Positions 639-45,095 of a stretch of 64,000 nucleotides of DNA are shown here, one piece after another. Every line of letters begins with the position of its first letter. Positions within the stretch are counted from its first letter, which is position 1. This stretch comes from Candidatus Oxydemutatoraceae bacterium (lineage in GTDB: Bacteria > Pseudomonadota > Gammaproteobacteria > Poriferisulfidales > Oxydemutatoraceae): the NCBI GenBank assembly GCA_965211995.1, contig OZ243040.1:1100249-1164248 (forward strand), given 5' to 3'. A program made the position numbers and the translations under genes. The notes beneath the pieces are model-generated. The model was not told the origin of the DNA. It did not search any database and worked only from the letters and a program-made list of their open reading frames with translations.

Positions 639-2126
639 ATGCAGATTACAACAACTTCAAAAAAGATCTCCGCGCCGGCCTCGGCCTGCACCATCGTGCC
701 CGTCTTCAAGGGGCGCCGTCCGGCGTCCTACCGCATCCTCGACGAAGCGAGCGGCGGCTTTTTGGACAAGGCGGTCAAACAGGCGGGGTTTGAAGCCGCC
801 TGCGGCGAGACGCTGACGCTGCACGCGCCCGGCCTGCGCCACCGCGTCATCATCGTCGCCGGGCTCGGCCAAGCCGGTGAACTCAACCGCGTCAAATTCA
901 TCAACGCCGCGCGCAGTTGCGCCGCCGCCGCCGCCGCGCTCAAACCGGCCAACCTGCTGTTCTGCTTCGACGACGTCGGCGCCCAGGCCGAGAAGGCCGG
1001 ATACCTGCGTGCGCTCGCGCTCGAGATCCAAAACGCCTATTACCGCTACGTCACGACCTTCGGCAAAAAGACCCGCCGCAAAGCGCAGGTCAAGACGCCG
1101 GCCAAATGCACTTTGCACTCGACGCTGCCCGCGGCGGCGGCGCGCGACGCGCTGCGTGAAGCCGCGGCGGTCCACCGCGGCGTCAGCCTCGCGCGTGAAC
1201 TCGGCAACCTGCCGGGCAACGTCTGCACGCCCGCGTACCTCGCGCGGCAGGCGCGCGGACTCGCGCGCGGCTCGAGCCGGCTCAGCGTGCGCGTGCTCGA
1301 GGAAAAAACGATGGAACGCCTCGGCATGGGCGCGTTCCTGTCGGTGAGCCAAGGCAGCGCCAACCCGGGCAAACTCGTGTGCCTCGAATACAAAGGCGGC
1401 AAGGCGCGCGCGGCGCCGGTCGCGCTGGTCGGCAAAGGCATCACCTTCGACACCGGCGGCATCTCGATCAAACCGAGCGCGACGATGGACGAGATGAAGT
1501 TCGACATGTGCGGCGCCGCGGCGGTGCTCGGCACGCTCGCGGCGTGCGTCAATCTGCGGCTGCCGCTGAACGTCGTCGGCGTCCTCGCCTGCGCCGAGAA
1601 CATGCCCGGCGGATGCGCGAGCAAGCCCGGCGACGTCGTCACGACAATGTCGGGGCAGACCGTCGAGATCCTGAACACCGACGCCGAAGGCCGCCTGGTG
1701 CTGTGCGACGCACTGACCTACGTCGGACGCTACAAGCCCGCGTGCGTCATAGATATCGCAACGCTGACCGGCGCCTGCGTCGTCGCGCTCGGGGACGCAG
1801 CCTCCGGCCTGCTGAGCAACACCCAGGCGCTCGCCGACGAACTGCTCCGCGCCGGCGGTACTTCGGGCGACCGCCCGTGGCAGTTGCCGTTGTGGGACGA
1901 ATACCAGCCGCAACTCAACAGCAACTTCGCCGATATCGCCAACATCGGCGGGCGCGGCGGCGGCACGATCACTGCGGCGTGCTTTCTGTCACGCTTCACC
2001 AAAGAATACGAATGGGCGCACCTCGACATCGCGGGCACCGCCTGGCTGACCGGCAAAGCCAAAGGCGCGACCGGCCGCCCGGTGCCGCTGCTGTTTGATT
2101 TTCTGCTGCGCCGCGCCCGGGAATAA
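639..2126 (+). CDS. pepA: Leucyl (cytosol) aminopeptidase PepA
   Basis: 495-aa ORF carrying the M17 signature NTDAEGRLVLCDAL and the metal-binding region VGKGITFDTGGISIK. Conserved position next to lptF. Confidence 0.95.
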   Translation: MQITTTSKKISAPASACTIVPVFKGRRPASYRILDEASGGFLDKAVKQAGFEAACGETLTLHAPGLRHRVIIVAGLGQAGELNRVKFINAARSCAAAAAALKPANLLFCFDDVGAQAEKAGYLRALALEIQNAYYRYVTTFGKKTRRKAQVKTPAKCTLHSTLPAAAARDALREAAAVHRGVSLARELGNLPGNVCTPAYLARQARGLARGSSRLSVRVLEEKTMERLGMGAFLSVSQGSANPGKLVCLEYKGGKARAAPVALVGKGITFDTGGISIKPSATMDEMKFDMCGAAAVLGTLAACVNLRLPLNVVGVLACAENMPGGCASKPGDVVTTMSGQTVEILNTDAEGRLVLCDALTYVGRYKPACVIDIATLTGACVVALGDAASGLLSNTQALADELLRAGGTSGDRPWQLPLWDEYQPQLNSNFADIANIGGRGGGTITAACFLSRFTKEYEWAHLDIAGTAWLTGKAKGATGRPVPLLFDFLLRRARE

Positions 2127-2214
2127 ATCCCTGAAACAGACCCCGCGGGATGCACTCCGTGGGATAGGCCCGGGATAGAATAAAAACGCACGCCGGCGAC
2201 CCCCGGACCAACAG

Positions 2215-2762
2215 CCGAACTGCCGCCCGCGACGACAAAGAGCCAAGCCCGGGCGCCTGCTCGCACCCGGCGCGCACCGCAACACAAGACCATGAAAACC
2301 ACTTACGCACCGCACCGGATCGAGCAGTCCCGACGCCGCGAATGGGGAGACCCGAACTGCCGCCCGCGACGACAAAGAACCAAGCCCGGGCGCCTGCACG
2401 CACCCGGCGCGCACCGCAACACAAGACCATGAAAACCACTTATGCACCGCACCGGATCGAGCAGTCCCGACGCCGCGAATGGGGAGACCCGAACTGCCGC
2501 CCGCGACGACAAAGAGCCAAGCCCGGGCGCCTGCTCGCACCCGCCGCGCGCCGCAACGCAAGACCATGAAAACCACTTACGCACCACGCCGGATCGAGCA
2601 ATCCCGCCGCCGCAAATGGGAAGACCCGAACTGCCGCCCACGACGACAAAGAACCAAGCCCGGGCGCCTGCGCGCACCCGCCGTGCGCCGCAACGCAAGA
2701 CCATGAAAACCACTTACACACCGCACCGGATCGAGCAGTCCCGCTACCGCGAATGGGAAGCC
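2215..2762 (+). repeat. Tandem array of 4 x 137 bp that reiterates the valS start region
   Basis: Units start at 2215, 2352, 2489 and 2626. Each holds about 77 nt of upstream sequence plus ATGAAAACCACTTA... (ATGs at 2292, 2429, 2566, 2703). By hand alignment, units 1 and 2 differ at 3 positions and units 3 and 4 are more diverged. Confidence 0.9.
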
Positions 2763-5447
2763 TCGGGCTGCTTCGCCGCGAGCGGCGACGGCGCGCCCTA
2801 CTGCATCATGCTGCCGCCGCCGAACGTCACCGGCACTTTGCACATGGGACACGCTTTTCAGACCACGCTGATGGACTGCCTGATCCGCTACCACCGGATG
2901 CGCGGGTTCCGCACCCTGTGGCAGGCCGGCACCGACCACGCCGGCATCGCGACGCAGATGGTGGTCGAACGCCGTCTCGAAGCCGCGGGCGTCGCCCGCC
3001 GCGACCTCGGGCGCGAACGCTTCATCGAAAAGATCTGGGAGTGGAAGAAAACGTCGGGTAATACGATCACGCGGCAATTGCGCCGGCTCGGCGCGTCGCT
3101 CGACTGGCGGCGCGAACGCTTCACCATGGACGACGAATTGTCGCGCGCGGTGCTCGCGGCGTTCACGCGCCTTTACGACGAAGACCTGATCTACCGCGGC
3201 AAGCGCCTGGTCAACTGGGACCCGGCGCTGCAAACCGCGGTGTCCGATCTCGAGGTGATCTCGGAAGAGGAAGACGGGCATCTGTGGCACCTGCGCTATC
3301 CCCTCGCCGACGCGGCCGGCGGCGAACACGTCACGGTCTCGACGACCCGGCCCGAAACCCTGCTCGGCGATACCGCCGTCGCGGTGCACCCCGCAGACGA
3401 GCGTTACCGCGAACTCATCGGGCGGCGCGTGACGCTGCCGCTCGCCGGACGCGACATACCGGTCATCGCCGACGACTACGTCGATCCCGAGTTCGGTTCG
3501 GGCTGCGTGAAGATCACGCCGGCGCACGATTTCAACGACTACCGGGTCGGCAAGCGCCACGGCCTGGCAGTGATCAACGTCATGCGCGAGGACGCGTCGC
3601 TGAACGACGAAGTCCCCGCCGAGTACCGCGGTCTCGACCGCTACGCGGCGAGAAAACGCATCGTCGCCGACCTCGACCATTGCGGCCTGCTCGCAAAAGT
3701 CGAACCCCGGCGCATGACGATACCGCGCGGCGACCGCAGCGGCGCGGTGATCGAGCCGTACCTGACCGACCAGTGGTTCGTGCGCGCCGAAGCACTCGCC
3801 GCAGCCGCAAAACAGGCGGTCACCGACGGGCGCATCCGCTTCGTGCCCGACAACTGGCGCAAGACTTATTTTGAGTGGATGAACCGCATCGAGGACTGGT
3901 GCATCAGCCGCCAACTGTGGTGGGGGCACCGCATCCCCGCGTGGTACGACGAAGCGGGCAACGTGTACGTCGCGCACTCCGAAGCCGCAGCCCGGGAGCG
4001 GCACCAACTCGGCAACACGTGCAAATTGCGCCGCGACGAGGACGTGCTCGACACCTGGTTCTCCTCCGCGCTGTGGCCGTTCTCGACCCTCGGCTGGCCG
4101 GACGAGACGCCTGAACTTCGGACCTTCTACCCGACCAGCGTGCTGGTCACCGGCTTCGACATCGTCTTCTTCTGGGTCGCGCGCATGATCATGACGGGGG
4201 TCAAGTTGACCGGCGACGTCCCGTTCCGCGAAGTGTACGTGCACGGGCTGGTCAGGGACGCGCAGGGGCGGAAAATGTCGAAGTCCAAGGGCAACGCGCT
4301 CGACCCGATCGACCTGGTGGACGGCATCACCCTCGAAGCGCTGGTGAAAAAACGCCTGGCCGGGTTGATGCAGCCGCACCTCGCCGAGCGCATCGAGCGC
4401 GACACGCGCAAACAGTTTCCCGACGGCATCCCGGCGTACGGCACCGACGCGCTGCGCTTTACCTTCGCCGCGCTGGCGACCAGCGGGCACGACGTTCGCT
4501 TCGACCTCGGGCGCATTGAAGGCTACCGCAATTTCTGCAACAAACTGTGGAACGCGGCACGCTTCGTAACACTGTTCTGCGACAAGGCGGACGCAAACAG
4601 CGCGCCGCCGACGGTGTACGACCGCTGGATACGCCACCGCCTGCACACGCTGACCGCGGAGGTCGCCCGGCACTTTGCAAACTACCGCTTTGACCTCGCG
4701 GCCGCCGGGATCTACGAATTCGTATGGCACGACTTCTGCGACTGGTTTCTCGAGCTCAGCAAAGTCGCGCAAACGGGCGATCGCGCCTGCCTGATCGGCA
4801 CGCTCGAAACCATCCTGCGGCTGCTGCACCCGATCACGCCCTACATCACCGAGGAGATCTGGCAGCAACTCAAGCCGCTGACCGGCTGCGGCGAGGAGAC
4901 AATCCAGCGCCGCCCCTACCCGGCGCCCGCCGAAACCTCCGCCGACGCGCACGCCGAACGGGCCGTCGCACGCCTGCGCGAGATCGTCGTCGGCCTGCGG
5001 CGCGTGCGCTCGGAACTCGACCTGCCGCCGGGCCGGGCGCTGCCGGTGCTGATCCAAAACTGGAGCGCGCGCGACCGCGAACACTTTGAGCGGCACCGCA
5101 GCGCGATCGCGGCGCTCGGCGGCGTCGCGGGCGTCGAGTGGCTCGAACCCTCGGCGCCGGCGCCGCAGGCGTCGATCGTGCTGGTCGGCGACATGCAACT
5201 GCTGGTGCCGCTCGCCGGCCTGATCGACGCCCCGGCCGAGATCGCGCGCCTGCACAAGCAAGTCTCGAGAATCCGCAAGCAACTCGCAAGCGCGCAAACG
5301 CGGCTCGACAACCGGAACTTCGTGAACAAAGCGCCCGCCGAGATCATCGCGGCGCAACGCGCCAACGTCGGCGACTGCGAGGCGCGGATCGCCAAACTGA
5401 ACGAGCAGATCGCGGCGCTGGGAGCGCTGGAGCAGAACGCACGCTGA
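2703..5447 (+). CDS. valS: Valyl-tRNA synthetase
   Basis: From the ATG at 2703 the product begins [52 protein letters not shown], which is collinear with the E. coli ValRS N-terminus. A KMSKSKGN motif is present. The track ORF from 2442 is an in-frame extension through the repeat array. Confidence 0.93.
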
Positions 5448-5640
5448 CGCAGGCCCGTGCAACAGCCGGCGGGCAAGCGCCGCTGCGCCAGGATCACGCC
5501 CGCAATCAAGGACACGCCGGGGCCGTATTCAACCGCCGCCGTTTCAAATATCGCTGTCTGCAAATACCGCCGCCGGCGCGGCGTTCAGCCCCCGCGCATC
5601 GGCGGACAGCGTGCGCTGCACAGGGGAAAAACGAAACCGG

Positions 5641-6375
5641 TCAGCCGCTTTTTCTCTTGCAGAAACCGCGCAGTACATTTTTAACGTATTCCGGGATCTC
5701 CGCTTGCACTTTTGCAGCCTCTTCTGCAAGCAGATCGTATGCAGCGGTTTCTTCACCCACCCATAACAAATCAAGCCTGCGGATATCTCGCGTAGCAACG
5801 TGCGTATATGACTCCGGATAGGCCCAATAACAGGATTGGCAAACTGCCGGATCCTTGGCTTGCCAATTCCCGCAGTTCTCACAACTCCATGATTTTGCCC
5901 TGTTTGCAGAAGCGCATAACAGCATATATTCATCAAGGTTTTCAGTTGCAGCGCCACTGTCCCCTGAGATTTCAAATGGAATCCTGTGATCGATTTGCAG
6001 TTCCCTTAATGGCAACGGCTCAAGATAGATATTGCAGCGAGAGCCGTGCTTTTCCATCAGCGCCGTCTTTAGATTGGATGAGAAAGCCGTCCGCCCGCAC
6101 CGCCGGGCAACGCGCACTTCCGCTGGATCGCCAAATTAATAAGCGGCAATCCTTTTGCCGTCCGCCCCGGTAACAAAAAACGTTGCTATCGGGATGCCCC
6201 GCTCCCTGACGTCTCTTATTGCCCGCGGGGGATGGTGATAACCGTAGAGGTCTTTAAGTTCTTCCGTCGTTATCCGTCCGTGCTTGAGAATATGATCAAT
6301 TACGATCTTCGGGCGTTTTGCTTCCACGCTCTTCAGCAATTTTAAAAACTCGGGCGGATAAGCCTGCTTTCTCAT
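5641..6375 (-). pseudogene. HNH (beta-beta-alpha-Me) restriction endonuclease-like gene, apparently split by an in-frame TAA
   Basis: ORF 6136..6375 (winged-helix-like N-terminal part) and ORF 5641..6117 are in the same frame. The second has the HNH motif QIDHRIPF and Cys pairs CENC / CQSC. Only a TAA at 6136-6138 and 6 sense codons separate them. ATGA overlap with the upstream methylase gene at 6372-6375. GC is lower than in the flanks. Confidence 0.55.
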
Positions 6376-7301
6376 GCGAGCACAAGCTCCCGCTGCTTTT
6401 CATTCGCCGGATAAGCGACTCTCGTCTCACCGCGGTTCAATCTGTCCACCAGGGCCGGGGATAAATACAGCGATTCGACGGTCTCGTCGTCGCCCCCCAA
6501 CAACGTGGCCTGGCTCGACCTGCCCGCGTGAATGAACAGGTGCTTCAGCGACAAACTCCGTGGCAACCGTTGGCCGTGAATTTTTCCGCCGGTGGCACCA
6601 TCGTAACTGATTATGTAAGAAATGCGCTTTTTATTCATCTCCCGCAACGCATCAACAAAGTTATCGTAAGTGAGCCCGTTGAAGTACCGGCGATCTCTCG
6701 TGAAAGACGTTCCCTGATAGGGGGGATCCATATACACCAGGTCTTCGACTTTGACCCTGTTTACGGCCTTTCTAAAATCGACGGAAGACACGGTCGTCCT
6801 TGTGGTCAGCAGTCGGAAGACCCCCGTAATGTTCTTCCTCATCGTTCTCGGCTTCATCCCGGAACGCCTGTTGTCCGCGCTTTGATTAAACAAGCCTTCG
6901 GCACTGTATCTCACCGCCCCCTTTACGATGCGGGCGAGCAAATACAACAGATGATGCGGCTGATGAGAAACATTGAACTCCTCGCGGATACGAAAGAAAT
7001 ACTCTTTTCGATCCGGACGCTGTGCAAGCCATAGCCGTTCATATTTATCAGCCAATTCGTTCGGCCTCTCAAGGATCTCCGCCCACAGCCCCATCAACGG
7101 CTCGTTCAGATCATTGAGCACGAATCGCTTCGCCAAATCGTGTGCGGCGGCGGCGATGGAAATTGCGCCGGCGCCGCAAAAAGGCTCAATCAAACACCGC
7201 ACGTCGCAGGGAAAGTGCGGAAGTATGTTCTTTGCAATTCCGCGCTTGCTCCCCTGGTACGGAAACGGGTGAGGCGCGGATAAATTTTGATGCGTTTTCA
7301 T
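6372..7301 (-). CDS. Dam-like (D12 class) N6-adenine DNA methyltransferase
   Basis: Motifs PYQGSKR, EPFCGAGA (SAM binding) and DPPY. The likely start is the internal ATG at 7301 (MKTHQNLSAPHPFPYQGSK), not the track start at 7421. Confidence 0.85.
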   Translation of the reverse strand: MKTHQNLSAPHPFPYQGSKRGIAKNILPHFPCDVRCLIEPFCGAGAISIAAAAHDLAKRFVLNDLNEPLMGLWAEILERPNELADKYERLWLAQRPDRKEYFFRIREEFNVSHQPHHLLYLLARIVKGAVRYSAEGLFNQSADNRRSGMKPRTMRKNITGVFRLLTTRTTVSSVDFRKAVNRVKVEDLVYMDPPYQGTSFTRDRRYFNGLTYDNFVDALREMNKKRISYIISYDGATGGKIHGQRLPRSLSLKHLFIHAGRSSQATLLGGDDETVESLYLSPALVDRLNRGETRVAYPANEKQRELVLA

Positions 7302-7451
7302 GCGCCTGATTTTACCTTGTTTCGATAACTTAACGGTAAAATATAAACACGCGCGAGCGCCCGGCGGAAGGTGCAACGATGCCGCAGAATCTTTCAGACA
7401 AAATCCAACGCTCCCTGCCACGTCCGGGTTCGCTCGGAGAGACTGAGAGAT

Positions 7452-7680
7452 TCACTCCCGGAATTTTCTCTCCATGCCGTTGCCGGCGTCCAACTCCTTG
7501 ATCGAATCGAGCAGCCTGCGGGCGTTCCCGGGGTTGCGCAAAAGGCAAGTGGTTTCCTTGGGGGCTTAATAGCCTTTCGGCGCAAGCATCACCGCTGCGC
7601 AATCGTTCCTCCTGGTGATTGCGACCGGCGATCGTGCGCGCCGGATTGGCGCACGCACGGGTGTAGTCCGGTATTTTCAC
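7452..7680 (-). pseudogene. yefM: yefM/phd-family antitoxin pseudogene (one frameshift plus one in-frame TAA)
   Basis: The C-terminal frame reads ETTCLLRNPGNARRLLDSIKELDAGNGMERKFRE*, close to E. coli YefM [34 protein letters not shown]. The middle frame reads PVAITRRNDCAAVMLAPKGY then TAA. The N-terminus VKIPDYTRACAN follows a GGAGG RBS but lies in a different frame. Confidence 0.75.
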
Positions 7681-7716
7681 GGGTTGCCTCCTTGTCTCTG
7701 ACTAATAGTTGCACCA

Positions 7717-7754
7717 TTAGATTGAAGCCTAAATCTAGTAGCCCTGTTAGATTT
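7717..7754 (-). promoter_or_regulatory. Candidate operator: TAGATT/AATCTA half-sites upstream of the yefM remnant
   Basis: TTAGATT (7717), AAATCTA (7731) and TTAGATTT (7747) form inverted and direct repeats in an AT-rich stretch 40-75 nt upstream of the yefM start. Confidence 0.3.
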
Positions 7755-7788
7755 CAATTTTTCCTGAGCCTGTACATAAACGCCGGCA

Positions 7789-8442
7789 TCACACAACCTG
7801 GTCGCGCACATAGACCGGCAGCGCCTGCGACGGCTTCAGGGTGTCGCCGGCTTTGACTTTCGCCGTTGCGAGTTTCAGCACCGCGCCGGCGCGCGGCAGC
7901 AGGTCCGGCTTGCGCACCGCAAGGCCGGCGCCGAGCGCAGGATAAGCCGCGAGACCGCTGCCGCCGGCGCAGCCCGAAAACGCGGCAAGCCCCGGCACCT
8001 TCTCCGCCGATACCACGCCTTCCTCCCCCTCGGCTTCGGCCAGGCCGCCGCGGCCGCGGCGGAAGAAGCCGTAATAGACCTCGCCCATGCGCGCGTCAAT
8101 CGCCGCGAGCGCACGCGGCTCGCCGCAGCCGTCGAACAATTGCTGCGCGAGCGTTGCAAGGTTCGACACCGCCGCCACCGGCAGACCGTGCGCGTACGCG
8201 ATCCCCTGCGCCGCCGCCGCCGCGATCCTGACGCCGGTAAAAGCGCCGGGGCCGCGGCCGAACGCAAGCGCGTCGAGCGCGGCGGGCGCGATCCCCGCCG
8301 CCGCGAACACGGCGTCGCACATTTCAAACAGCAAGCGGTTGTGTTGGCGCGGCGCGACCGTGAATTCTTCATGCACTTCGCCGCCGCACGTCAACGCAAC
8401 CGAGCAGGCCGCGGTCGCCGTATCCAGCGCGAGCAGGTTCAC
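7789..8442 (-). CDS. tsaB: tRNA t6A biosynthesis protein TsaB (YeaZ)
   Basis: N-terminus (M)NLLALDTATAACSVAL and the motif GPGAFTGVRI. The GTG start at 8442 overlaps the upstream ORF's stop codon (GTGA). Confidence 0.9.
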   Translation of the reverse strand: MNLLALDTATAACSVALTCGGEVHEEFTVAPRQHNRLLFEMCDAVFAAAGIAPAALDALAFGRGPGAFTGVRIAAAAAQGIAYAHGLPVAAVSNLATLAQQLFDGCGEPRALAAIDARMGEVYYGFFRRGRGGLAEAEGEEGVVSAEKVPGLAAFSGCAGGSGLAAYPALGAGLAVRKPDLLPRAGAVLKLATAKVKAGDTLKPSQALPVYVRDQVV

Positions 8443-10586
8443 CGCGCCGCGCCGGAGTCGCCGGAGTCGGCGGATTCAAGTCTGAAGCGCGACGCCGGCC
8501 CGTCATCCTCCGGCGCCCGCCCGCGTTGTCTTGTGTGTTTCCCCCCGCCGGCCGGGCCGCACCCGGCCGGGTCGCCCTCAGGGGCGGAGTGATCTGCAGC
8601 AACCCCCCCGGCTTGTTTTTGCCGCACTTCGGGCCGGAAGTTGGCGCCGCTCAGGTAGGGGCGCAGCGAGTGCAACTGCTCGCAACGTTTCATCGGCGGC
8701 AGGCTGTTCAGGATAAGCTTGCCGTAACTGCGCGTGCGCAGGCGCTTGTCGCCGATCATCACCACCCCGATATCGGTTTCGTCGCGGATCAGGCGCCCGA
8801 TCCCCTGGCGCAGCGAGATCACCGCTTCGGGCAGCGTCGCTTCCCTGAAAAAATCGCGCCCCTGCTCTTTCGCCTTGTGAATGCGCCCCCGCGTCAGCGG
8901 ATCGGAGGGCGACGCAAAGGGCAGGCGGTCTATGATCACGCAGCGCAGCCCGGCGCCGCGCACGTCGACGCCTTCCCAGAACCCCGCGGTGCCGAGCAGC
9001 ACCGCGTTCGACGTACTGCAAAAGCGCCGGATCAGTTCAACCTTCGGCGCGCTCCCCTGCACCAGCAGCGTGTAGTCGGTTTCGTCGGCGATCTTTCTCG
9101 AGGCCGCCTGCAGCGCGCGGTGGCTCGTGAACAGAAAGAACACGCCCCCCTGAGCCATCTCGAGCAAACGATAGCCGGTTTCGATCACGCCGGCGGTATG
9201 CTCGGGGTCGTTCGGGTCGGGCAAATTCGACGGCACGTACAAGGCGGCCTGCTCGGCGTAGTCGAACGGGCTGTCGAGCGCGACGCGGGCGCAACTCTCA
9301 GCCAGCCCGGTCTGCGCCAGAAAATAAGTGAAGTCGCCGCCGAGCGACAAAGTCGCCGAGGTGTAGATCCAGTTCGCGTCGTACAACTTGTGCTTGTCGC
9401 TGAGCAGCGGTGCGACGTCGGTCGGGCTCGCGTACAAACGAAAAGAGTTGCGCCCGGTCTGATACCAGCCGACCCGGTCGCCGCCGCTCTCGAGCACCTC
9501 GGCAAACCGCCGCCGCATGTCTTCAGCGCGATCCCACAGGTTGAACAACTGCTCGGACTGTCGCCGCAGGGGCTGCAACGCGCCCGCGAGTTGTTCGAGT
9601 GCGGCGGCGAGCACGCGCCGCGCCGCGGCGACGTCGTCTTGCCCGAGGGCGACGGCGGTGGTCTCCCGCACGGGCAATTGACCGAGCGCACTCATCATCG
9701 TCGCGATCGCCGACTCCAATTCCACGGCGGCGCTCATCAACTCCGGCGTTTTTGCCGCGTCGCCCGCGGCGCGTATATCGCGCAGCAACCACAGGCACTG
9801 AGAACTGGTGAACGAGATGCTGAAAAAGTGATTGGCGATGCCGCCCAACTGATGCGCCTCATCTATGATTACGGTGTCAACCTGAGGCAGCAATTGACCG
9901 AAGCCTTCCTCCCTGAGCGTCATATCCGCGAGCAGCAGGTAATGGTTGACGACGACGAGGTCGGCTTGCAGCGCGCGGTTTCTCGCGGCGGCGACGCAAC
10001 ATTCGTCGAACTTCGGGCAGCGGGCGCCGAGACAGTTTTCAGACGTCGAGGTCAGCGACGCCCACAGCGGGTCGTTTTCGCTGAGGCCGCCGAAGTCGCT
10101 GATGTCGCCGCCCGCGGCGGTCTTCGACCAGCGATAGACGCGCTCGACCATGCCGTTGTCGTCGGCGTCGAGCGCGCGCGTCCGCCACGCCTGCTCCAGG
10201 CGCTCGGCGCACAGGTAGTTGGCTCTGCCTTTGAGCAGCGCGGTGTCGGCGGCGATGCCGAGCGCCTTCAGCACCAGCGGCAGATCCTTGGTGTAGATCT
10301 GATCCTGCAAGTAGCGCGTGCCGGTCGAAATCACGACCTTCTTGCCCGACAGCACCGCAGGCACGAGATAAGCGAAAGTCTTGCCGACGCCGGTGCCGGC
10401 TTCGATCACGAGGTTGCCGCCGTTTTCGATCGCGTAGGCGACGCGGCGCGTCATCGTCTCCTGTTGCGGGCGGCTGCGAAACCCCGGCACCAGCGACGCA
10501 AACGGCCCGTCGGCGGCCAGCAGCCGGCTGCATTCATCGGCGAACGCCCTCGCCGACGCCCGCTTGGATGGCGGCACTCGCGCCAT
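8439..10586 (-). CDS. yoaA: DinG/YoaA-family Fe-S ATP-dependent DNA helicase with a 3' extension derived from the element
   Basis: Walker A (AGTGVGKT), DEAH box (IIDEAHQL) and a Cys cluster (NYLC, CLGARCPKFDECC). Adjacent to tsaB, as yoaA is in E. coli. The last roughly 65 aa are encoded by element copy A. Confidence 0.85.
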   Translation of the reverse strand: MARVPPSKRASARAFADECSRLLAADGPFASLVPGFRSRPQQETMTRRVAYAIENGGNLVIEAGTGVGKTFAYLVPAVLSGKKVVISTGTRYLQDQIYTKDLPLVLKALGIAADTALLKGRANYLCAERLEQAWRTRALDADDNGMVERVYRWSKTAAGGDISDFGGLSENDPLWASLTSTSENCLGARCPKFDECCVAAARNRALQADLVVVNHYLLLADMTLREEGFGQLLPQVDTVIIDEAHQLGGIANHFFSISFTSSQCLWLLRDIRAAGDAAKTPELMSAAVELESAIATMMSALGQLPVRETTAVALGQDDVAAARRVLAAALEQLAGALQPLRRQSEQLFNLWDRAEDMRRRFAEVLESGGDRVGWYQTGRNSFRLYASPTDVAPLLSDKHKLYDANWIYTSATLSLGGDFTYFLAQTGLAESCARVALDSPFDYAEQAALYVPSNLPDPNDPEHTAGVIETGYRLLEMAQGGVFFLFTSHRALQAASRKIADETDYTLLVQGSAPKVELIRRFCSTSNAVLLGTAGFWEGVDVRGAGLRCVIIDRLPFASPSDPLTRGRIHKAKEQGRDFFREATLPEAVISLRQGIGRLIRDETDIGVVMIGDKRLRTRSYGKLILNSLPPMKRCEQLHSLRPYLSGANFRPEVRQKQAGGVAADHSAPEGDPAGCGPAGGGKHTRQRGRAPEDDGPASRFRLESADSGDSGAAR
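8470..8643 (-). mobile_element. Palindromic TIR element, copy A (forms the 3' tail of the yoaA ORF)
   Basis: Aligns with the other six copies: ...CAAGTCTGAAGCGCGACGCCGGCCCGTCATCCTCCGG...GCCGCACTTCGGGCCGGAAG. Confidence 0.8.
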
Positions 10587-25371: not shown

Positions 25372-26508
25372 ATGCTCGTCGCGGGCGAGCCGTCGGGCGA
25401 CATGCACGCCGCGGACCTGATCGCAGCGCTGCGCGCACACGCCGGCGGCAAACGTTTCGACTGTTTCGGCATGGGCCTCGGCGCCATGCGGCGCGCGGGG
25501 CTGCGCCGCCTGGTGGACGCCGGCGACCTGGCGGTAGTCGGCTTGTTTGAAGTCGTCGCGCACTACCCGAAACTCAGGCGCGCCTACCGCCGCCTGGTGC
25601 GCGCGCTCGAGGAAGAAGCGCCCGATCTGCTGGTGCTCGTGGACTACCCCGACTTCAACCTCAGGCTCGCCGCGGTCGCGCGCCGCCTCAAAGTGAAAAC
25701 ACTCTTCTATATCAGCCCGCAGGTGTGGGCGTGGCGCGCGGGGCGCGTCAAGACAATCGCGCGCCGCGTTGACGCGATGGCGGTGGTGTTCCCGTTTGAG
25801 GAAAAGATCTACCGCGACGCCGGCGTTCCCGTGCGTTACGTCGGACACCCGTTGGTGGACCGGATGCGCGATCTGCCGGCGCGCGGCGGCGGCAAAGGCG
25901 GCAACCGGGGCGGCAAAAAAGTGCTGCTGATGCCCGGCAGCCGCGTCGTCGAAGTGCGGCGGCTGCTGCCGGTGCTGTGCCGCGCCGCCGTCGGGATTGC
26001 GGCGCGCACGCCCACGGTGCGCTTCTCGCTGCCGCTCGCGCCCGGCCTCCCGGCGGCACTCATCGCACGGCACTTGCGCAAGCACGGCCTCGCCTGTGAA
26101 GTGATCCGCGACCATCACGAGGCGGCGATGCAAGACTGCGACCTCGCGCTCACCGCCTCCGGCACCGCCACGCTGCAACTCGCGCTGTGCGGCACGCCGA
26201 TGATCATCGTCTATAAGGTCTCGTGGCCGACCTACGTGCTGCTGAAACGGCTGGTGACGACGCCGCGCATCGGCCTGGTCAACATCGTCGCGGGCAAAAC
26301 GGTCGCGCCCGAACTGATCCAGGGCGCCGCCAACGCCGAGGCGATCTGCAATGAAGCGCTGGCGTTGCTTGAAGACGAACGACGCACGCAGGAGATCAAG
26401 CGCGACCTGGATAAAGTGAAACGCGCACTCGGCGACGGCGGTGCCGCGGAAAATCTCGCGGGACTGGTGCGGGAGATGGTTGGCGCCGAGGCGGCGGCGA
26501 CCCGGTGA
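25372..26508 (+). CDS. lpxB: Lipid-A-disaccharide synthase
   Basis: MLVAGEPSGDMHAADLIAALRA matches the LpxB N-terminal signature. The in-frame GTG at 25348 is an alternative start. Confidence 0.9.
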   Translation: MLVAGEPSGDMHAADLIAALRAHAGGKRFDCFGMGLGAMRRAGLRRLVDAGDLAVVGLFEVVAHYPKLRRAYRRLVRALEEEAPDLLVLVDYPDFNLRLAAVARRLKVKTLFYISPQVWAWRAGRVKTIARRVDAMAVVFPFEEKIYRDAGVPVRYVGHPLVDRMRDLPARGGGKGGNRGGKKVLLMPGSRVVEVRRLLPVLCRAAVGIAARTPTVRFSLPLAPGLPAALIARHLRKHGLACEVIRDHHEAAMQDCDLALTASGTATLQLALCGTPMIIVYKVSWPTYVLLKRLVTTPRIGLVNIVAGKTVAPELIQGAANAEAICNEALALLEDERRTQEIKRDLDKVKRALGDGGAAENLAGLVREMVGAEAAATR

Positions 26509-26660
26509 GGCCATTCCGTTGCACTGCGCTTTTCAGTTTTTTGCCGGAGCAGGTTATAATTTTTCGTTTTTACCCGATGCAATCAGCGCACCGACAGTTT
26601 CCCCGGCGACTGGCCCGGCGACCGGGCGCCCCGCCCCGCGCGGAACCTGCAAAAGCCGCT

Positions 26661-27104
26661 ATGAATTCAGATCTAACCGCGCCACCGCCCGCAAGCCCGC
26701 TGCTGCAATTTTTCCGCTACGCCATTGTCGGCGGGATCGCCACCGTTGCCGATCTCACGGTGTTCGCTTTTCTGGCGCAGCACCTCAACTACCTGCTCGC
26801 GACGACGGCGTCTTTTCTCGCGGGAACGACGGTGAACTTCTTTCTGTGCCTCAAATTCGTGTTCCGCTTGAAAGGACATTCGCCGACCGAGGCGTTATGG
26901 AGAAAATTTCTGGCGAGCGGTTTATCGCTGGCGGTGAACCTGCTTGCAATGTTCGTCATGGTGGACGTTCTGGCGTTCGAGCGGATGAACTTCGAGACGT
27001 TCGGTTCAGTTGACGGTCTGTTGCTCGCAAGAATCCTCGCTATCGGCCTGGCTTTTTTCATCAACTTTATGCTGACAAAATACTACGCGTTCCGGGATTA
27101 TTGA
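26661..27104 (+). CDS. GtrA-family membrane protein (polyprenyl-phosphate-sugar translocase family)
   Basis: LLQFFRYAIVGGIATVADLTVFAFL...FLAGTTVNFFLCLKFVF, with 4 predicted TM segments. Start taken at the ATG at 26661. GC content drops from this point. Confidence 0.75.
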   Translation: MNSDLTAPPPASPLLQFFRYAIVGGIATVADLTVFAFLAQHLNYLLATTASFLAGTTVNFFLCLKFVFRLKGHSPTEALWRKFLASGLSLAVNLLAMFVMVDVLAFERMNFETFGSVDGLLLARILAIGLAFFINFMLTKYYAFRDY

Positions 27105-27129
27105 CGCGCAGTTCCCGTCAAGTGATGAT

Positions 27130-28068
27130 TTGATGTCCAGGACGATTTTAATCACCGGGGGAGCAGGATTTTTCGGCGGAATCCTGAAACGCTTCCTTTT
27201 GAAAAAAGGCTTTGCCTGCGTCTCCATTGATCTCGAGCGGGACGCAGATTCGCATACGCGCCTCAGTTCCGTTCAGGGCGACATAACCGACGCAAAAACG
27301 CTGGACGGCCTGTTCGGTTCAAGGAAGATAGACGCGGTTTTCCATTGTGCGGCGATGCTCGCCCATGAGGTAAAGGACAAAACCGCGCTGTGGCGGTCAA
27401 ACGTGGAAGGCACCGCAAACGTCGCCGGGATGTGCCGGAAACACGGCGTTGTAAAAGTCATCTACACCTCTTCAAACTGCCTGTGGGCGAAAAATTTCGG
27501 CCGGCCGGTTACGGAAAACGACGTCCCCGAACCGGCTGAGATCTACGGGAAATCAAAGTGGGAGGGAGAAAAGATCCTGCAATCCTTTTCAGGAGATTTT
27601 CATTCCGTCATTTTCAGGTGTCCGACGATCATTGACGCCGGACGGATCGGCTTGCTCGGAATACTGTTCGAATTTATACGCGAGGGACGCAAGGTTTGGG
27701 TCGTGGGAGACGGCGGCAACAGGTATCAGTTTATTTACGCGGGAGATCTCGTCGCCGCGTGCATCAAAGCCCTCGAACATGAAAAATCGGACGTTTTCAA
27801 TATCGGTTCGGACGGTGTAACTTCGCTGCGGGAAGTTTATGAGCACGTTATTTCCCGCGCCGGAACGCCGGCGCGCGTCGCCGGTCTGTCAAAAGGGCCG
27901 GCGATTTTTTTGATGAAACTGTTTCATTCGCTGGGGCTGTCCCCTCTCGGACCCTATCATTACAAAATGATCAGCGAAGACTTTATTTTCAACACTTCAA
28001 AGATAAAGAAAACTCTGGGATGGTCACCGACCATTGACCAATCAGCAAATGCTTCACAAGGCGTATGA
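27130..28068 (+). CDS. NAD-dependent epimerase/dehydratase (extended SDR), possibly frameshifted at the 3' end
   Basis: TGGAGFFGG glycine motif and YGKSK catalytic motif. The +1 frame continues as PLTNQQMLHKAYEFYIHDFESL... to a TAG at 28169-28171. Confidence 0.8.
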   Translation: MMSRTILITGGAGFFGGILKRFLLKKGFACVSIDLERDADSHTRLSSVQGDITDAKTLDGLFGSRKIDAVFHCAAMLAHEVKDKTALWRSNVEGTANVAGMCRKHGVVKVIYTSSNCLWAKNFGRPVTENDVPEPAEIYGKSKWEGEKILQSFSGDFHSVIFRCPTIIDAGRIGLLGILFEFIREGRKVWVVGDGGNRYQFIYAGDLVAACIKALEHEKSDVFNIGSDGVTSLREVYEHVISRAGTPARVAGLSKGPAIFLMKLFHSLGLSPLGPYHYKMISEDFIFNTSKIKKTLGWSPTIDQSANASQGV

Positions 28069-28178
28069 ATTCTATATCCATGATTTTGAATCTTTAAGCG
28101 GCGACGGCTTGTCAGCGCACAGACGAAGTGCCAAAATGGGGATTATCCGCCTGCTGAAAGCGATTTCGTAGAAACCGA

Positions 28179-29687
28179 ATGTCGGCATCAAATCAAAGGG
28201 TTATTTGCATCGGCGGCGGCCCGGCCGGACTGACCGCCGCCTACTTGCTGTCGAAGAAAGGCATTCCCGTCACCGTGCTGGAAGCCGATCCGGTTTATCT
28301 GGGCGGCATCTCCAAAACCGTGTCGCATAAAGGTTTTCTGTGCGACATCGGCGGGCACCGCTTCTTCTCCAAGTCGCAGGAAGTCGTTGATCTGTGGGGC
28401 GAAATTCTCGACGAAGGCTTCATAAAAAGACCGAGAAAGTCGCGCATCTATTATAAAAATAAATTCTTTGACTACCCGCTGAAACCGGGAAACGCGCTTT
28501 CCAACCTCGGCCTTAGCGAGGCCGGCCTCTGCATTCTTTCCTACCTGAAAGCGTCTTTGTTGCCGGTGAAAAACCCGGTGAACTTTGAGGACTGGGTGAG
28601 CAACAAGTTCGGCCGCCGGCTGTTCTCGATTTTTTTCAAGTCCTATACCGAGAAAGTCTGGGGGATGAAATGCTCGGAAATCTCCGCGGACTGGGCGGCT
28701 CAGCGCATCAAGGGGCTGTCGCTGTGGGCGATGGTCAAGAACGCGTTGTTTCCCGGCCGCTCCGCGTCCGGAGACGCGGCCAAAGGCGCCGTGATAAAGA
28801 CCTTGATCGACTCGTTCCACTACCCGCGCAAAGGCCCGGGCATGATGTGGGAAAGCGCGGGACGCAAAATCGAACAACAAGGCGGCGAAATCAAGACCGG
28901 GCAGCGGGTGGTCGGGCTGCGCCGCATCGAAACCGGGTGGGACGTCGTGTCCCGCGCCGCGGACGGGGTGTCCCGCGCCGCGGACGGGGCCGAGGCGCAT
29001 CACGAGGCCGGCTCGGTCATATCAAGCGCCCCGCTCAGGGAACTGGTGCAGTGCCTCGAACCTCGACCGTCCCGGAACGTTGTCGCGGCGGCCAATTCGC
29101 TGCATTACAGGGACTTCCTGATCGTCGGCCTCATCGTCGAAGACCGGCGCCTCTTTGATGACAACTGGATCTACATCCACGACCCGGCGGTGAAAGTCGG
29201 CAGAATACAAAATTTCAAGTCATGGTCTCCCGACATGGTGCCCGAACCCGGCAGGAACTGCTACGGAATGGAGTATTTCTGCTTTGAGGGAGACGGGATC
29301 TGGACGAGCGCCGATGCGGACTTGATCAAACTTGCAAGCGACGAGTTGATCCAACTCGGGCTGGCCCGCCCGGGCGACGTCGCCGACGGCTTCGTGGTGC
29401 GGCAGAAAAAAGCCTACCCGGTGTATGACGACGCCTATGCAGAGAACGTCGCCATCGTCCGCCGCGAGATCGAGGAGCACTACCCCGGCCTTTATCCGGT
29501 CGGCAGGAACGGGATGCACAAATACAACAATCAGGACCACGCGATGATGACGGCGATGCTGACGGTCGAAAACATCATCGCCGGAGAACAACGCTATGAC
29601 GTGTGGAAAGTGAACCAGGACGCGGAGTACATTGAAGAGCAAACAAGGCCCGCCGAGAAGGGAAGAGCGACGCCGCATAAAATTTAG
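28179..29687 (+). CDS. FAD/NAD(P)-binding oxidoreductase (amine-oxidase / protoporphyrinogen-oxidase-like fold)
   Basis: N-terminal dinucleotide-binding motif [17 protein letters not shown]...VLEA. 502 aa. Substrate unknown. Confidence 0.75.
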
Positions 29688-29775
29688 GTTTTCCAAAATG
29701 CCGAAGCGCCGGGGAAAAAGAACCGTCGCACAGCGCCCGAAAAGTCAGCCGGAACGCCGGACACGTCACGAAAAT

Positions 29776-29915
29776 AAACTGAACGTGCCGGCGGGCCTGA
29801 CGGGCCGAATGCACCGGTTTTAATCGTTTTTACCTACGCCTGGCCACCGCCTCTTTAGGATTTGACGAACCGGGGACCTCGATTGTAATCAGTCGCTGCA
29901 AGAGCACTTTTTAAT
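29776..29915 (+). repeat. Remnant of the RCC1-gene 3' end plus downstream sequence (direct-repeat partner of 32446..32660)
   Basis: AAACTGAACGTGCCGGCGGGCCTGACGGGCCGAATGCACCGGTTTTAATCG aligns with AAACGAACGTGCCGACAGGCTTGGCGGGCCGGATACGTCATCTGTAATCC. The similarity continues downstream (TTTGACG..., AATCAG, CTGCAAG.GCACTTTTT). Confidence 0.65.
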
Positions 29916-31540
29916 TTTGGGATTATCCCCCCGCCGCCCGAAGCCCGGTTCACCCGCACCGCGTCAAGGGGAGGCAGTTGGCGCCGTTGCATTGGTTGTC
30001 GCCCCGCCGCCCTAAATTCATCCCATCTGCCCCTGCCATCGGCGAGCGTTTTTTTTTCAGCCATGGTCATCAGGGCTTGAAGCAGTCAGGCCTTACCGTA
30101 TCCAACCTTTGTATATATAAATCTTATCTCGTCCTGGATTTGTCGCACTTTTCTTTAGATTTATCTAGTCTTTGTCATCCTTCATCTTATATTTGTCTAA
30201 CATTCACTCTGTTGGGTTCGGAGTTTGCTGCATCCGAGGTTTGCCGAGTCAGGGGGCGTCGAGTTTGAGCCGCCCCGCCGGAACGCCGGATGAATCGGGA
30301 TGCCCCCCGAATCCGGCGCGTGACTGCGCCGCCGCTGGCCTTGAGGCCCGACGCCGCCCGGCGCTTTCAATCAGCAGCGGGCGCGGCGCCAATACCCGGA
30401 TAAGCCTTGTGGCGGTTGAAAACGCAGTTTTGACCCTTATCAAGCGGCCCGCTTGCAGCCGCAACTGTTATATAGTTTTCGGGAACGGCGGCGGCGCCGG
30501 ACGCAGAGGCCGCGATGACGGTCGGCCTGTGAAGCGTCAGAACTGACAACTTCCAGTAATCAACCGATGACCCGGGAGGCTGGCATGTCACACAAAACAC
30601 TCAACCGGCAATTCGCAGGACGGATTGCGGCACTTCTCGCAGCTTCAACTCTGTTCATCACGGCTTCGGCTTTCGCCCAAACCGACCCCGCATCGGAGTC
30701 TTCGCTGTTTGCGCGCTGCAACGAGCGGGTGGCGGACACCTACGTCTCGGCCTTCGAGGTCACGGCGGACTTCGATGTCGGCGAACAGGAGAGCCAATTG
30801 TTTTGCACACCGCAGAGCAACATTGCAGGCAACGGCGCGGACGTGGCCGTGCTTGACGTCACCGACGACGACGGCGTGGCGGGGCGTCCAAACTGGTGCT
30901 CGGGTCGGTGCAGGTGGCACGGGGCTACATGCTAATTGCGTTCACCGAAGCCGACTACGCCGGGGCAAGCCGCTACTACGACGGCTCGGCGGCGGCGTTG
31001 GACGAGATGCGGATCGGCTCCTACATGGTGCGCCTTGATCCGATTGTCAGCGCCTGCGGCGGCGACCGCTCGGTGAAGGTGGTGTTCTGGGACCGGAAGA
31101 ATTTCACCAGTTCGTCCGGCGCACAGCCATATTGCTTCAGCCGGGATCAGCGCGACGTGGAGGACGTGGTTGATGCGGCTTTCGTCAAGATGAGATCGGT
31201 GCACGTGAACCGGGCCTACAAACTGATCGCGTTCAGGCAAACGAACTATGCGGGGGACGTGCGGGTGCTGTTCAGCGACGACGCGGACACGGCGGTGGGC
31301 CTAAACGCCTTCAAGGTGAAATCGTATCTGCTGGTGCCGAGTGTGGCATTGGAGAGCGTCGAGGAAACCGACGCCGGCGTGGTGTTGAGTTATTCGCGGG
31401 TGAGCACCGGCAGCCATAGCGTGGTGATCCCGCGTGCGGCTTTCCGGGTGGTGGAGAGCGAGGATGAGTTGAGCCGGACGCTTCAATATGCGACCGGTCG
31501 CGAGGACGAGCCGTGGCGGGACTTGGCGACGGTCAAGGAC

Positions 31541-31693
31541 GGTCGGGACGGTGAGGACGGCAAGGACGGCGCGGGCGGGGCGCAAGGTCCGCAAGGCGAC
31601 AAAGGGGATGCCGGCCCGCCAGGACAGGACGGCGCAGTCGGGGCGCAAGGCCCGCAAGGTGCCGCCGGTCCGCCGGGACAGGATGGGAAAGAC
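31541..31693 (+). repeat. Collagen-like G-X-Y region (17 triplets)
   Basis: GRDGEDGKDGAGGAQGPQGDKGDAGPPGQDGAVGAQGPQGAAGPPGQDGKDG. Confidence 0.85.
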
Positions 31694-31887
31694 GGGACAA
31701 GCCAGGTGGCCTCGTTTGACCCGTTGACCTCCTCCTGCGGGGACGACAATAAAGGCGTCATGGAGTATGACCGCGCCGGCACGAACCTGCTGATCTGCGA
31801 CGGGGCAAAATGGATTACGTTATCGTTCACGCAAACCGGCACCCGTTTGGATTTTCCGTCCGCTGATGAGTTGGGATCAGCGACTTC

Positions 31888-32489
31888 TTTCGGCGGGTGG
31901 GGACACACCTGCGCGGTGCTGGACAACGGCAATGTCGAGTGCTGGGGTCGTAACACCGATGGCCAAACGAACGTGCCGGCGGGTTTGGCGGGCCGGGTGC
32001 GCCAGATTGCGGCGGGTCAGAAGTACACCTGCGCGGTGACGGACGACGGCAATGCCGAGTGCTGGGGTCTTAACCGCAATGGCCGAACGAACGTGCCGAC
32101 GGGCTTGGCGGGCCGGGTGCACCGGATCGCGGCGGGCGGTCATCACACTTGTGCAGTGACGGACGATGGCAATGTCGAATGCTGGGGCTGGAATGGCGAT
32201 GGCCAAACGAACGTGCCGGCGGGCTTGGCGGGCAGAGTGCGCCGGATTGCGGCGGGCGTCCGGCACACCTGCGCGGGTGCCGGACGACGGCAATGCCGAG
32301 TGCTGGGGTCTTAACCACGATGGCCAAACAAACGTGCCGGCGGATTTGGCGGGCCGGGTGCGCCAGATTGCGGCGGGCAGTTTTCACACCTGTGCGCTGA
32401 CGGACGGCGGCAATGTCGAGTGCTGGGGCAATAACACCCAAGACCAAACGAACGTGCCGACAGGCTTGGCGGGCCGGATACGTCATCTG
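31888..32489 (+). repeat. Five tandem 114-bp (38-aa) RCC1-like repeats
   Basis: The unit HTCAVTDDGNVECWG.N.DGQTNVPAGLAGRVR.IAAG occurs 5 times with near-identical DNA. Confidence 0.85.
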
Positions 32490-32660
32490 TAATCCCTTTG
32501 CCTGCGCCCGGCCTGCCGACTTTTAAGGTTTGACGGGCGGGCGCCCCGGTTTCAATCAGCCATCGCGGGAGCGGTTTCAGTTTGGAGGTTGCCGCCCGCC
32601 GTTACAGGCTCCACTCATCCTCATCCTGCCGTCTGCAAGCACTTTTTCAATGAGGCGAAG
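32446..32660 (+). repeat. Direct-repeat partner of 29776..29915 (true 3' end of the RCC1 gene plus downstream sequence)
   Basis: See 29776..29915. This copy carries an extra internal segment of about 65 nt. Confidence 0.6.
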
Positions 32661-32813
32661 GAAAGTTAAACGCGATAAAAGGAACTGATAAAAGTGTCGG
32701 CACACAGATAGTGTACGAGTCCATAACGTCCGGCACTTGCTTGACAGTTCGTTAGTGATCCAGCAAAATTCGAAACCTGAAAAATCGGTTTCTCGCCCCG
32801 CTTCTGCATAACC

Positions 32814-34106
32814 ATGGCTGGAAAAAAACATAAACGCGGTCGCCCATTGGCACGGCCGCACTTGAGCAACCCCCAAACCCGGCAACCCCACCCCAAAAAA
32901 CGCACTCTGCAGCGCGACTATTCGCCGCCTGCAATCTACGCAGTTGCCGCGGCGGTTCTGGCGGGCGTCTATATCCTGTGGCAACTGCAATCTCCGACAA
33001 TCTCATATCCGTTCGACGATCAAAAAACCGCCCGGAAATGGAGCGTTCAAGGGCGGGCGGAAACGCAATTGACACCGGACGGACTGTTGGTAAAACCGCA
33101 AGACGCCGCCCTACTGATAAGTCCCCGGCTTGCTCCCCTGCGGCAAACCCTGAATTGGCGCAACTTTCCCTACGTCAAACTGAGCGTCACCCCCGAAGCC
33201 AAGGAACGCCGGATGGCGCTGGCTTGGATTCCCGGCCAAGATCCCAATCAGAATTACCAACTTCCTTTCACGGTGCCTGCGTCAGCCTCCGAAGTGCTGC
33301 TCGACGTTCGGCAGGACGTGGCGTGGGAAAGACGTTTCGGCTGGGATCGAAACGCTTTGTCGCAGACACCGGTCAGACGCTTAGGGGTGCTGCTTCAGAA
33401 CACTGTCGAAGTCCGCGAGGTCGCCCTGCTTTCCAGCCTTAACCCGCTGCAATTGAGCCGATTGCTGTGGTCCCAGTATTGGGCGGTCGAACCGGTCAAA
33501 GTCAGTTCTATCAACGCTCATTACGGCAACGAGGTGCTGGGAACACCGCTGGTCACGACATTCGGAATAATTTTTGCCGTTTTATTCGCGCTGATGCTGG
33601 TCAGCCGGCGGAAAAAATTCAAAGTGCCGTTGCTGTCGGCGATGCTGGTTTGTTTTATCGCTCCCGAAATGCCGTTCGTCGGCACTTTGTGGGAACAGGC
33701 CGCGGCAAGCGGCAAAGTATCGGCCTGGCACGCCGACCGCTACGACGAATACCGCTCGCGTTTCAATCAGGAGTTCGCCGATCTCGACAGGGAGTTTCTC
33801 AAGCGCGTGCCGGCCGGTTCTCGCGTCGCGTTTCCCAACTCTAAACAATGGCTGATACAGGGTGAAAGCAACTGGATCTGGTTTTTATACTATGACCTGT
33901 ACGAAAACTATAAAGATCGCGAAAGAGACAGCACCCATTTGGACAAAAACACCCAGTACGTCTTTTATTACCACCCCGCCGGACTGGCTCACGATGAGGC
34001 AAAGAACATTCTGCACCGCACCGAAGGCAAAAAGAAAGGCTATAAAACGGAAACTCTGGCCCGAATATCAGAACAAGCCAAAATTCTGAAACTCATCCAT
34101 GACTAG
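32814..34106 (+). CDS. Hypothetical membrane-anchored protein (N-terminal TM, about 200-aa extracytoplasmic domain, central TM pair, C-terminal domain)
   Basis: 430-aa ORF with protein-like composition. Hydrophobic segments AIYAVAAAVLAGVYILW and LVTTFGIIFAVLFALMLV. Overlaps the next gene by 8 nt. Confidence 0.6.
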   Translation: MAGKKHKRGRPLARPHLSNPQTRQPHPKKRTLQRDYSPPAIYAVAAAVLAGVYILWQLQSPTISYPFDDQKTARKWSVQGRAETQLTPDGLLVKPQDAALLISPRLAPLRQTLNWRNFPYVKLSVTPEAKERRMALAWIPGQDPNQNYQLPFTVPASASEVLLDVRQDVAWERRFGWDRNALSQTPVRRLGVLLQNTVEVREVALLSSLNPLQLSRLLWSQYWAVEPVKVSSINAHYGNEVLGTPLVTTFGIIFAVLFALMLVSRRKKFKVPLLSAMLVCFIAPEMPFVGTLWEQAAASGKVSAWHADRYDEYRSRFNQEFADLDREFLKRVPAGSRVAFPNSKQWLIQGESNWIWFLYYDLYENYKDRERDSTHLDKNTQYVFYYHPAGLAHDEAKNILHRTEGKKKGYKTETLARISEQAKILKLIHD

Positions 34107-35496: not shown

Positions 35497-35592
35497 GCCG
35501 GGCCGCAACTTCCGGCCACGGAAATAGACGCAGGCATTACTTGGAAACGGGTCGCCCAGTACGGCCATCCACCGCAAGCGACCGCGAAAAAT

Positions 35593-41846: not shown

Positions 41847-41863
<17 letters not shown>
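40622..41863 (-). CDS. argJ: Bifunctional glutamate N-acetyltransferase / amino-acid acetyltransferase
   Basis: Motifs [26 protein letters not shown] and [10 protein letters not shown]. Confidence 0.95.

Positions 41864-45095
<3,232 letters not shown>

Follow-up and report, generated by a model that had tools for sequence, protein, structure and literature searches.

A fourfold tandem repeat of the valS translation-initiation region in a gammaproteobacterium: a probably tolerated duplication with start codons chained by ATGA overlaps

The MIRU elements of mycobacteria are tandem intergenic units found between co-oriented genes, in which each unit contains an open reading frame (ORF) coupled at -4 nt to the ORF or gene behind it; this arrangement is proposed to keep the effect on that gene to a minimum (PMC12548453). 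The units described for the senX3-regX3 spacer, 77 bp and 53 bp (PMC4213456), have lengths that are 2 mod 3 by our own arithmetic. A repeat of this type can therefore lie at a start codon and affect the gene that follows only a little (PMC12548453; PMC4213456). The elements are dispersed and apparently mobile, and are found in mycobacteria only. Searches of the literature on the details of MIRU ORFs and on 5' UTR duplications returned nothing useful.

An upstream stop codon that overlaps the main start is also found in coupled upstream ORFs (uORFs), such as the leader ORF of Escherichia coli iraD (PMC5574718), and in the gene pairs of Huber et al. 2019. In experiments, most of the pairs examined showed tight coupling at such overlaps; ATGA pairs were tightly coupled in 13/14 of the archaeal and E. 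coli pairs tested, with a variable contribution of the Shine-Dalgarno (SD) sequence (PMC6728339). The cases described so far involve either one uORF or two real genes, and an SD sequence and a binding site for a regulator are often present. Short ORFs are likewise present upstream of aaRS genes in leader-peptide attenuators and T-box leaders. Ordinary tandem duplications (VNTRs) consist of head-to-tail copies with a founder junction, are amplified later and are lineage-specific.

The locus described here lies in a 64-kb stretch of DNA from a Candidatus Oxydemutatoraceae bacterium (Gammaproteobacteria), hereafter the window, in which a 137-nt unit is repeated four times head to tail, without indels, at 2215-2762 (Table 1). 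The nearest described analogue is the MIRU, and by analogy the array would work alike, but it lies outside that family. As in MIRU, the units are in tandem between co-oriented genes, the ORF of each is coupled at -4 nt to the next (ATGA at 2429, 2566 and 2703), the unit length is 2 mod 3 and the repeat sits at a start codon. Unlike a MIRU, the unit reproduces the leader and first 20 codons of valS itself and has no sequence relationship to the mycobacterial elements; it is absent from the relatives, and no copy was found outside the array in the 64-kb window. A dispersed repeat of the MIRU or REP type was rejected because there are no further copies within the window. The relatives of the valine-tRNA ligase (ValRS) are Gammaproteobacteria and the unit is made of valS leader and coding sequence, neither of which points to a mycobacterial origin.

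The stop codon of the third decoy ORF overlaps the start of the main ORF, valS, as in a coupled uORF. By contrast with the known uORFs, three candidate uORFs of identical origin stand here in series, with no SD sequence and no known regulator. The array shares with VNTRs its head-to-tail copies, its founder junction, its later amplification and its restriction to one lineage, but it spans the start codon of an essential gene and has survived to a copy divergence of 9.5%. It differs from attenuators and T-box leaders in having neither terminator nor antiterminator and no T-box or other Rfam match. Attenuation through Val codons was rejected owing to their near absence from the three 46-aa decoy ORFs (0, 0 and 1) and to the lack of a terminator on the + strand.

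Table 1 Features of the pepA-valS region, as positions in the window.
Feature	Position	Strand	Description
pepA (leucyl aminopeptidase, M17)	639-2126	+	495-aa ORF; the L081-L088 orthologues carry PF02789/PF00883
Unique spacer before array	2127-2214	+	TAGAAT (2176-2181) within gatagaataaaa
Unit 1 (decoy)	2215-2351	+	Copy of leader and valS codons 1-20
Decoy ORF 1	2292-2432	+	46 codons; TGA overlaps ATG 2429 (ATGA)
Unit 2 (decoy)	2352-2488	+	3 differences from unit 1
Decoy ORF 2	2429-2569	+	46 codons; TGA overlaps ATG 2566
Unit 3 (decoy)	2489-2625	+	4 private substitutions, all within the ex-coding part
Decoy ORF 3	2566-2706	+	46 codons; TGA overlaps valS ATG 2703
In-frame ATG within unit 3	2616-2618	+	Start of public gene call P0001 (943 aa)
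Unit 4	2626-2762	+	Authentic valS leader (2626-2702) and valS codons 1-20; Tyr15 and Glu19 kept as in all relatives
valS (valine-tRNA ligase)	2703-5447	+	914 aa from the authentic start

The array, its neighbourhood and the start of valS

Tandem Repeats Finder returned a period of 137 nt over 2215-2757 (4.0 copies, 93% matches, 0% indels, score 925), and a separate repeat search gave the 137-nt spacing across the whole array in the same register. Each unit comprises 77 nt of leader followed by valS codons 1-20, with ATGAAAACCACTTA once per unit directly after the leader, at 2292, 2429, 2566 and 2703. Unit identity is 91-98%, with divergence up to 9.5% and 18 variable columns across the four units; four copies at this identity are far beyond chance. 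Pairwise, the units differ at 3 (units 1 and 2), 9 (1 and 3), 12 (2 and 3), 13 (1 and 4), 13 (2 and 4) and 12 (3 and 4) positions.

The first-pass annotation, made from the letters of the sequence, had described the unit, the number of copies, the positions of the ATGs and the ATGA-coupled ORFs, and every detail that was checked proved correct, with the same coordinates. It had given 3 differences between units 1 and 2 and about 10 or more between units 3 and 4; the counts are 3 and 12. Its view that the array is neither a trivial recent duplication nor an artefact of collapsed reads is borne out by the private substitutions of each unit and by one common founder junction, GAGAC/CCGAAC (the slash marks the join). 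It is accordingly very improbable that the array is an assembly artefact and that the true genome has fewer units. The copy number does rest on one assembly, and no second assembly of the species was found in the searched collections, where exact-protein look-ups with PepA, ValRS and the 943-aa call gave no match. An assembler cannot, however, invent from a single-copy locus private SNPs in each unit and a novel junction three times over; the source contig is 1.94 Mb, and the sister assemblies include megabase contigs, with contig names in the long-read style, so that an array of 548 nt should fit within single reads.

The locus was compared with seven contigs of the same clade, L081-L087 (L088 is a second copy of one of them). 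The gene order lptG-lptF (minus strand), pepA, valS is common to all seven. Their pepA-valS spacer is 61-98 nt long (260 nt in L082) and holds one valS start region, compared with 576 nt and four start regions in the window; the spacer of the window less three units is 165 nt. Tandem Repeats Finder, run over all 88 fetched loci, found no other array covering the valS start. Since the seven relatives all have one start and a shorter spacer, the array is lineage-specific, and the comparison with related genomes that the first-pass annotation had named as a check places it in this genome only. The constant period, the threefold junction GAGAC/CCGAAC and the single copy in the relatives mark the array as a tandem segmental duplication, that is, a local VNTR. 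Beyond these contigs, the best relative among the GTDB representative genomes stood at about 60% identity and none exceeded about 62%, the JGI metagenomes gave 0 matches to the DNA pattern of the valS start, and the C-terminal ValRS protein reached at most 50% identity there, the clade being absent from that collection.

The pepA-valS spacer of L082, whose ValRS is 81% identical, has been lengthened independently, by a tandem duplication that takes in the 3' end of pepA with its stop codon (copies at 4649-4789 and 4790-4960, with a spacing of 141/171 nt and a 30-nt indel). The spacer has therefore accepted tandem duplications at least twice in the clade. A further tandem repeat of L082, 391 nt x 2.1 and 96% identical, is located downstream of valS (9423-10230). 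In the window, one copy of the motif gcccggga(tag)aataaa is located at the pepA stop (2113-2127) and another 55 nt further on (2168-2185). The downstream copy matches TAGAATAAA, the context of the pepA stop in L083 and L085, which suggests that the 3' end of pepA was remodelled by an insertion or duplication of ~50 nt in this lineage.

In other Gammaproteobacteria the gap between pepA and valS is typically 440-1200 nt and holds holC (PF04364 confirmed in two of the loci, L003 and L013). The first-pass annotation had noted that the array occupies the holC slot, which is true by position but misleading, having no causal meaning: in this clade pepA is followed by valS, and holC is missing between them in all seven relatives. 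The gene was therefore gone from this position before the array arose. A tblastn search found no holC anywhere in the 64-kb window. Replacement of holC by the array was rejected, as the array expands a short spacer at a position from which holC was already missing across the clade.

The 3' side of valS is also variable. In the window a low-GC (55%) island (5500-8000) directly follows the gene. Of its three ORFs, all on the minus strand, one encodes a 349-aa, adenine-methyltransferase-like protein with a DPPY motif and has a 4-nt overlap with its neighbour. The cargo at this place differs among the relatives, with YoeB/YefM in L081, HipA in L083 and unknown genes in L082 and L087, so that the region 3' of valS is a hot spot of variable insertion. 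A second region of lower GC, 26000-36000 (56-62% compared with about 67% elsewhere), was possibly acquired horizontally. It includes a 472-aa ORF in the segment 30896-32477, with a collagen-like G-x-y stretch and RCC1-like repeats of ~40 aa (120-nt array, 31904-32477); because the ORF ends at 32314, within the 120-nt array, it may carry a frameshift or encode a truncated repeat protein. A tandem expansion is also present within a further essential gene of this genome, secA (41847-45095, minus strand), where an in-frame array of 33 nt x 5.9 at 43361-43554 encodes an 11-aa unit.

The ValRS homologues retrieved from a collection of 5.8 billion proteins identify the start of the gene. The closest of them, 75-83% identical, begin MKTTYEP... 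or a close variant, and ATG 2703 is therefore the authentic valS start. The public call P0001 has a 29-aa extension that is missing from all 11 close homologues, whose sequences begin with MKTTY or an equivalent, and its 943-aa model is therefore regarded as a start mis-call caused by the array, 29 aa too long. That ValRS is in fact made with an N-terminal extension, from the in-frame ATG at 2616 or from that at 2442, is scarcely credible. The valS frame is open back to 2442, and 2616 is the start used in the public call; against this, besides the homologues, the RNA at ATG 2616 is predicted to be more structured than that at ATG 2703 (unpaired probability 0.52 vs 0.75), and the open frame upstream of 2703 is a by-product of a T content of 6%.

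Origin and age of the array

All three inter-unit junctions are alike and novel (...GGGRAGAC/CCGAACTGCC...), and a single founder event therefore made the first decoy. The flanks read ...ACAGCC/GAAC on the left and ...GAAGCC/TCGG on the right, with AGCC-type microhomology in both, and we infer that the founder duplication took place at a short microhomology of this type.

The order of the later events was obtained by rooting the units with the relatives as outgroup, over 60 coding nucleotides. Codon 15 is TAC (Tyr) in unit 4 and in all 11 homologues and CGC in units 1-3; codon 19 is GAA (Glu19) in units 3 and 4 and in the relatives and GGA in units 1 and 2. Because of these states, the rooted tree of the units is (u4,(u3,(u1,u2))), with the decoys as one clade under relaxed constraint. 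Two residues that are invariant in ValRS are lost in the decoys, and unit 4 has changed at one coding site only, in the variable codon 6. This pattern of substitution is the one expected if unit 4 is constrained and the decoys are not. A history of pairwise duplication, by 274 nt, was rejected, since units 1 and 2 differ at 3 positions compared with 9 for units 1 and 3 and 13 for units 2 and 4.

Jukes-Cantor distances between units range from 0.02 (units 1 and 2) to 0.10 (units 1 and 4). The distance of valS to the nearest relative at 4-fold sites is 0.21, of which the divergence of the units reaches about half. Short tandem repeats are usually unstable and tend to collapse quickly. Judged from these distances, the first duplication is old relative to that instability and the last recent. 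Such an age is surprising for an unselected tandem repeat of 137 nt and argues for some selective retention, which pure neutrality does not explain; it leaves room for a modest selective benefit.

Signals and reading frames in the leader

An SD sequence is absent at all four ATGs. Each ATG lies in an A-rich island of 45-52% GC within the 67% GC array, and the predicted unpaired probability at the four is 0.74-0.84, compared with a mean of 0.49 for the leader and 0.33-0.39 for the flanks. The decoy starts are thus predicted to be physically equivalent to the authentic one and should work if transcribed. In folding predictions neither single units nor the 615-nt leader surpassed dinucleotide shuffles (z -0.1 to +2.5), and a structured RNA element was rejected for both the units and the whole leader. 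Rfam covariance models run in E-value mode over 1900-3100 gave only one sub-threshold chance match (E 0.78), and a T-box or riboswitch was likewise rejected.

No sigma-70-like promoter was found in 1900-3000, inside the units included, and no intrinsic terminator on the + strand in the same interval or between pepA and valS. The six terminator-like hairpins that were detected are all on the minus strand and are the repeated unit itself. The TAGAAT at 2176-2181 may, as a conjecture, be a -10 element; extended as TAGAAT(AAA), it matches the same pepA stop context of L083 and L085. All four units are probably on the valS mRNA, because no terminator follows pepA and the ancestral spacer had little room for more than a promoter at the pepA end. 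Alternatively, unit 4, or every unit, would contain the valS promoter; units 1-3 would then be untranscribed spacer or duplicated promoters, and no relay translation would occur. No promoter could be placed upstream of the array, and the MIRU-containing senX3-regX3 spacer of Mycobacterium tuberculosis has promoter activity (PMC4213456). The units themselves, however, also have no sigma-70-like site, read-through from pepA is likely in view of the missing + strand terminator, and the 61-98 nt spacer of the relatives puts the ancestral promoter most likely in or before the 3' end of pepA, upstream of the array; we consider silent upstream units improbable.

The frames of the decoys follow from the length of the unit. 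As 137 is 2 mod 3 and A is the first letter of the second codon, each decoy ATG frame stops on the next ATGA, and chaining of stops on starts arises only when both conditions hold. A unit of 0 mod 3 would have extended ValRS, and one of 1 mod 3 would have sent ribosomes out of frame over the valS start. The first-pass annotation had held that this geometry would allow a termination-reinitiation relay into valS; as far as the geometry goes this is valid, and it fits the published behaviour of ATGA overlaps (PMC6728339, PMC12548453). The relay geometry is by itself not improbable, the prior for 2 mod 3 being 1/3. Overlaps of -4 are common between real genes of the clade, for example lptF/lptG, tsaB/helicase and ispD/ftsB.

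The open frames of the decoys are uninformative, because the array has 6% T and contains no stop codon in any + strand frame except the four TGAs of ATGA. Comparisons between the decoy ORFs gave synonymous to nonsynonymous nucleotide differences of 1:5, 4:8 and 5:6, and the decoy peptides therefore drift roughly neutrally, with no sign of purifying selection; a Pfam search with the decoy peptides gave no match. Retention of three ATGs and three TGAs at this divergence is expected by chance. Indels number 0 among 18 substitutions, which is mildly suggestive of frame maintenance but not significant. The joint survival of all relay features has a P of ~0.05-0.15, a rough estimate that assumes an indel:substitution ratio of 0.1-0.2.

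These data bear on the view that the array is an adaptive expression device under selection, in which serial SD-less starts relay extra ribosomes into valS and continuous translation keeps Rho off a C-rich, rut-like leader. In that case more ValRS would be made, or its output would be tied to translational capacity, the decoy peptides being rich in Arg and Pro. The leader is indeed C-rich (C 41%, G 27%, T 6%) and unstructured. Such a composition is associated with Rho loading sites when the RNA is untranslated. The interplay of uORFs and Rho has been reviewed (PMC12360218), and both uORF control of Rho termination and 'ribosome delivery' by uORFs are documented (PMC12360218; PMC12548453; iraD, PMC5574718). 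The age of the array also favours selection, with unit distances that run up to 0.10 beside 0.21 to the nearest relative at 4-fold sites, as does the intactness of all three ATGA junctions and frames with no indels. Against it, the array is present in one genome only, and the seven relatives manage with a leader of 61-98 nt; the kept ATGs, frames and stops are statistically unremarkable given 6% T and few substitutions; the decoy peptides are not conserved; and neither Rfam models nor folding revealed a regulatory structure. We regard an adaptive device as unlikely.

The favoured explanation and its significance

The explanation that we favour, and consider probable, is that the translation-initiation region of valS was amplified in tandem in this lineage only and that the array has been tolerated through its geometry. 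In the founder duplication, valS codon 20 would have become linked to a position 77 nt before the start codon, and the decoy copy would later have been re-duplicated twice through unequal exchange between copies. The array would be transcribed from upstream, by read-through from pepA or starting at a promoter close to 2176. The four start sites, equivalent, unstructured and SD-less, would each load ribosomes, so that the decoys would be translated, and the ribosomes would be handed on by reinitiation, or released, exactly at the valS start without occluding it. The C-rich 490-nt leader would in this way stay translated and initiation at valS would remain intact, while the decoy peptides themselves would be functionless. 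On balance, ValRS output would probably change little.

Reinitiation without an SD sequence is gene-dependent, which is a point against this explanation. The relay geometry is, in our reading, mainly the reason that this particular duplication survived, rather than evidence of a designed function. A stronger version, a selectively maintained and self-templated 'ribosome relay' in which the four SD-less starts chained by ATGA raise or gate ValRS synthesis and protect the leader from Rho, is in our view distinctly doubtful. If true, a MIRU-like solution would here have arisen de novo out of the start region of the gene itself.

The array is thus a neat and probably tolerated duplication and no new kind of system; any function beyond tolerance is hypothetical, and no long-standing question is opened. 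Arrays of this type are a hazard for annotation, as they mislead gene callers, here into a public ValRS model that is 29 aa too long. A series of one to four units would be a ready-made system for measuring termination-reinitiation at SD-less starts. The mycobacterial MIRU follow the same stop-on-start length rule, and the locus offers a clean natural example of an essential gene absorbing a tandem duplication across its start codon.
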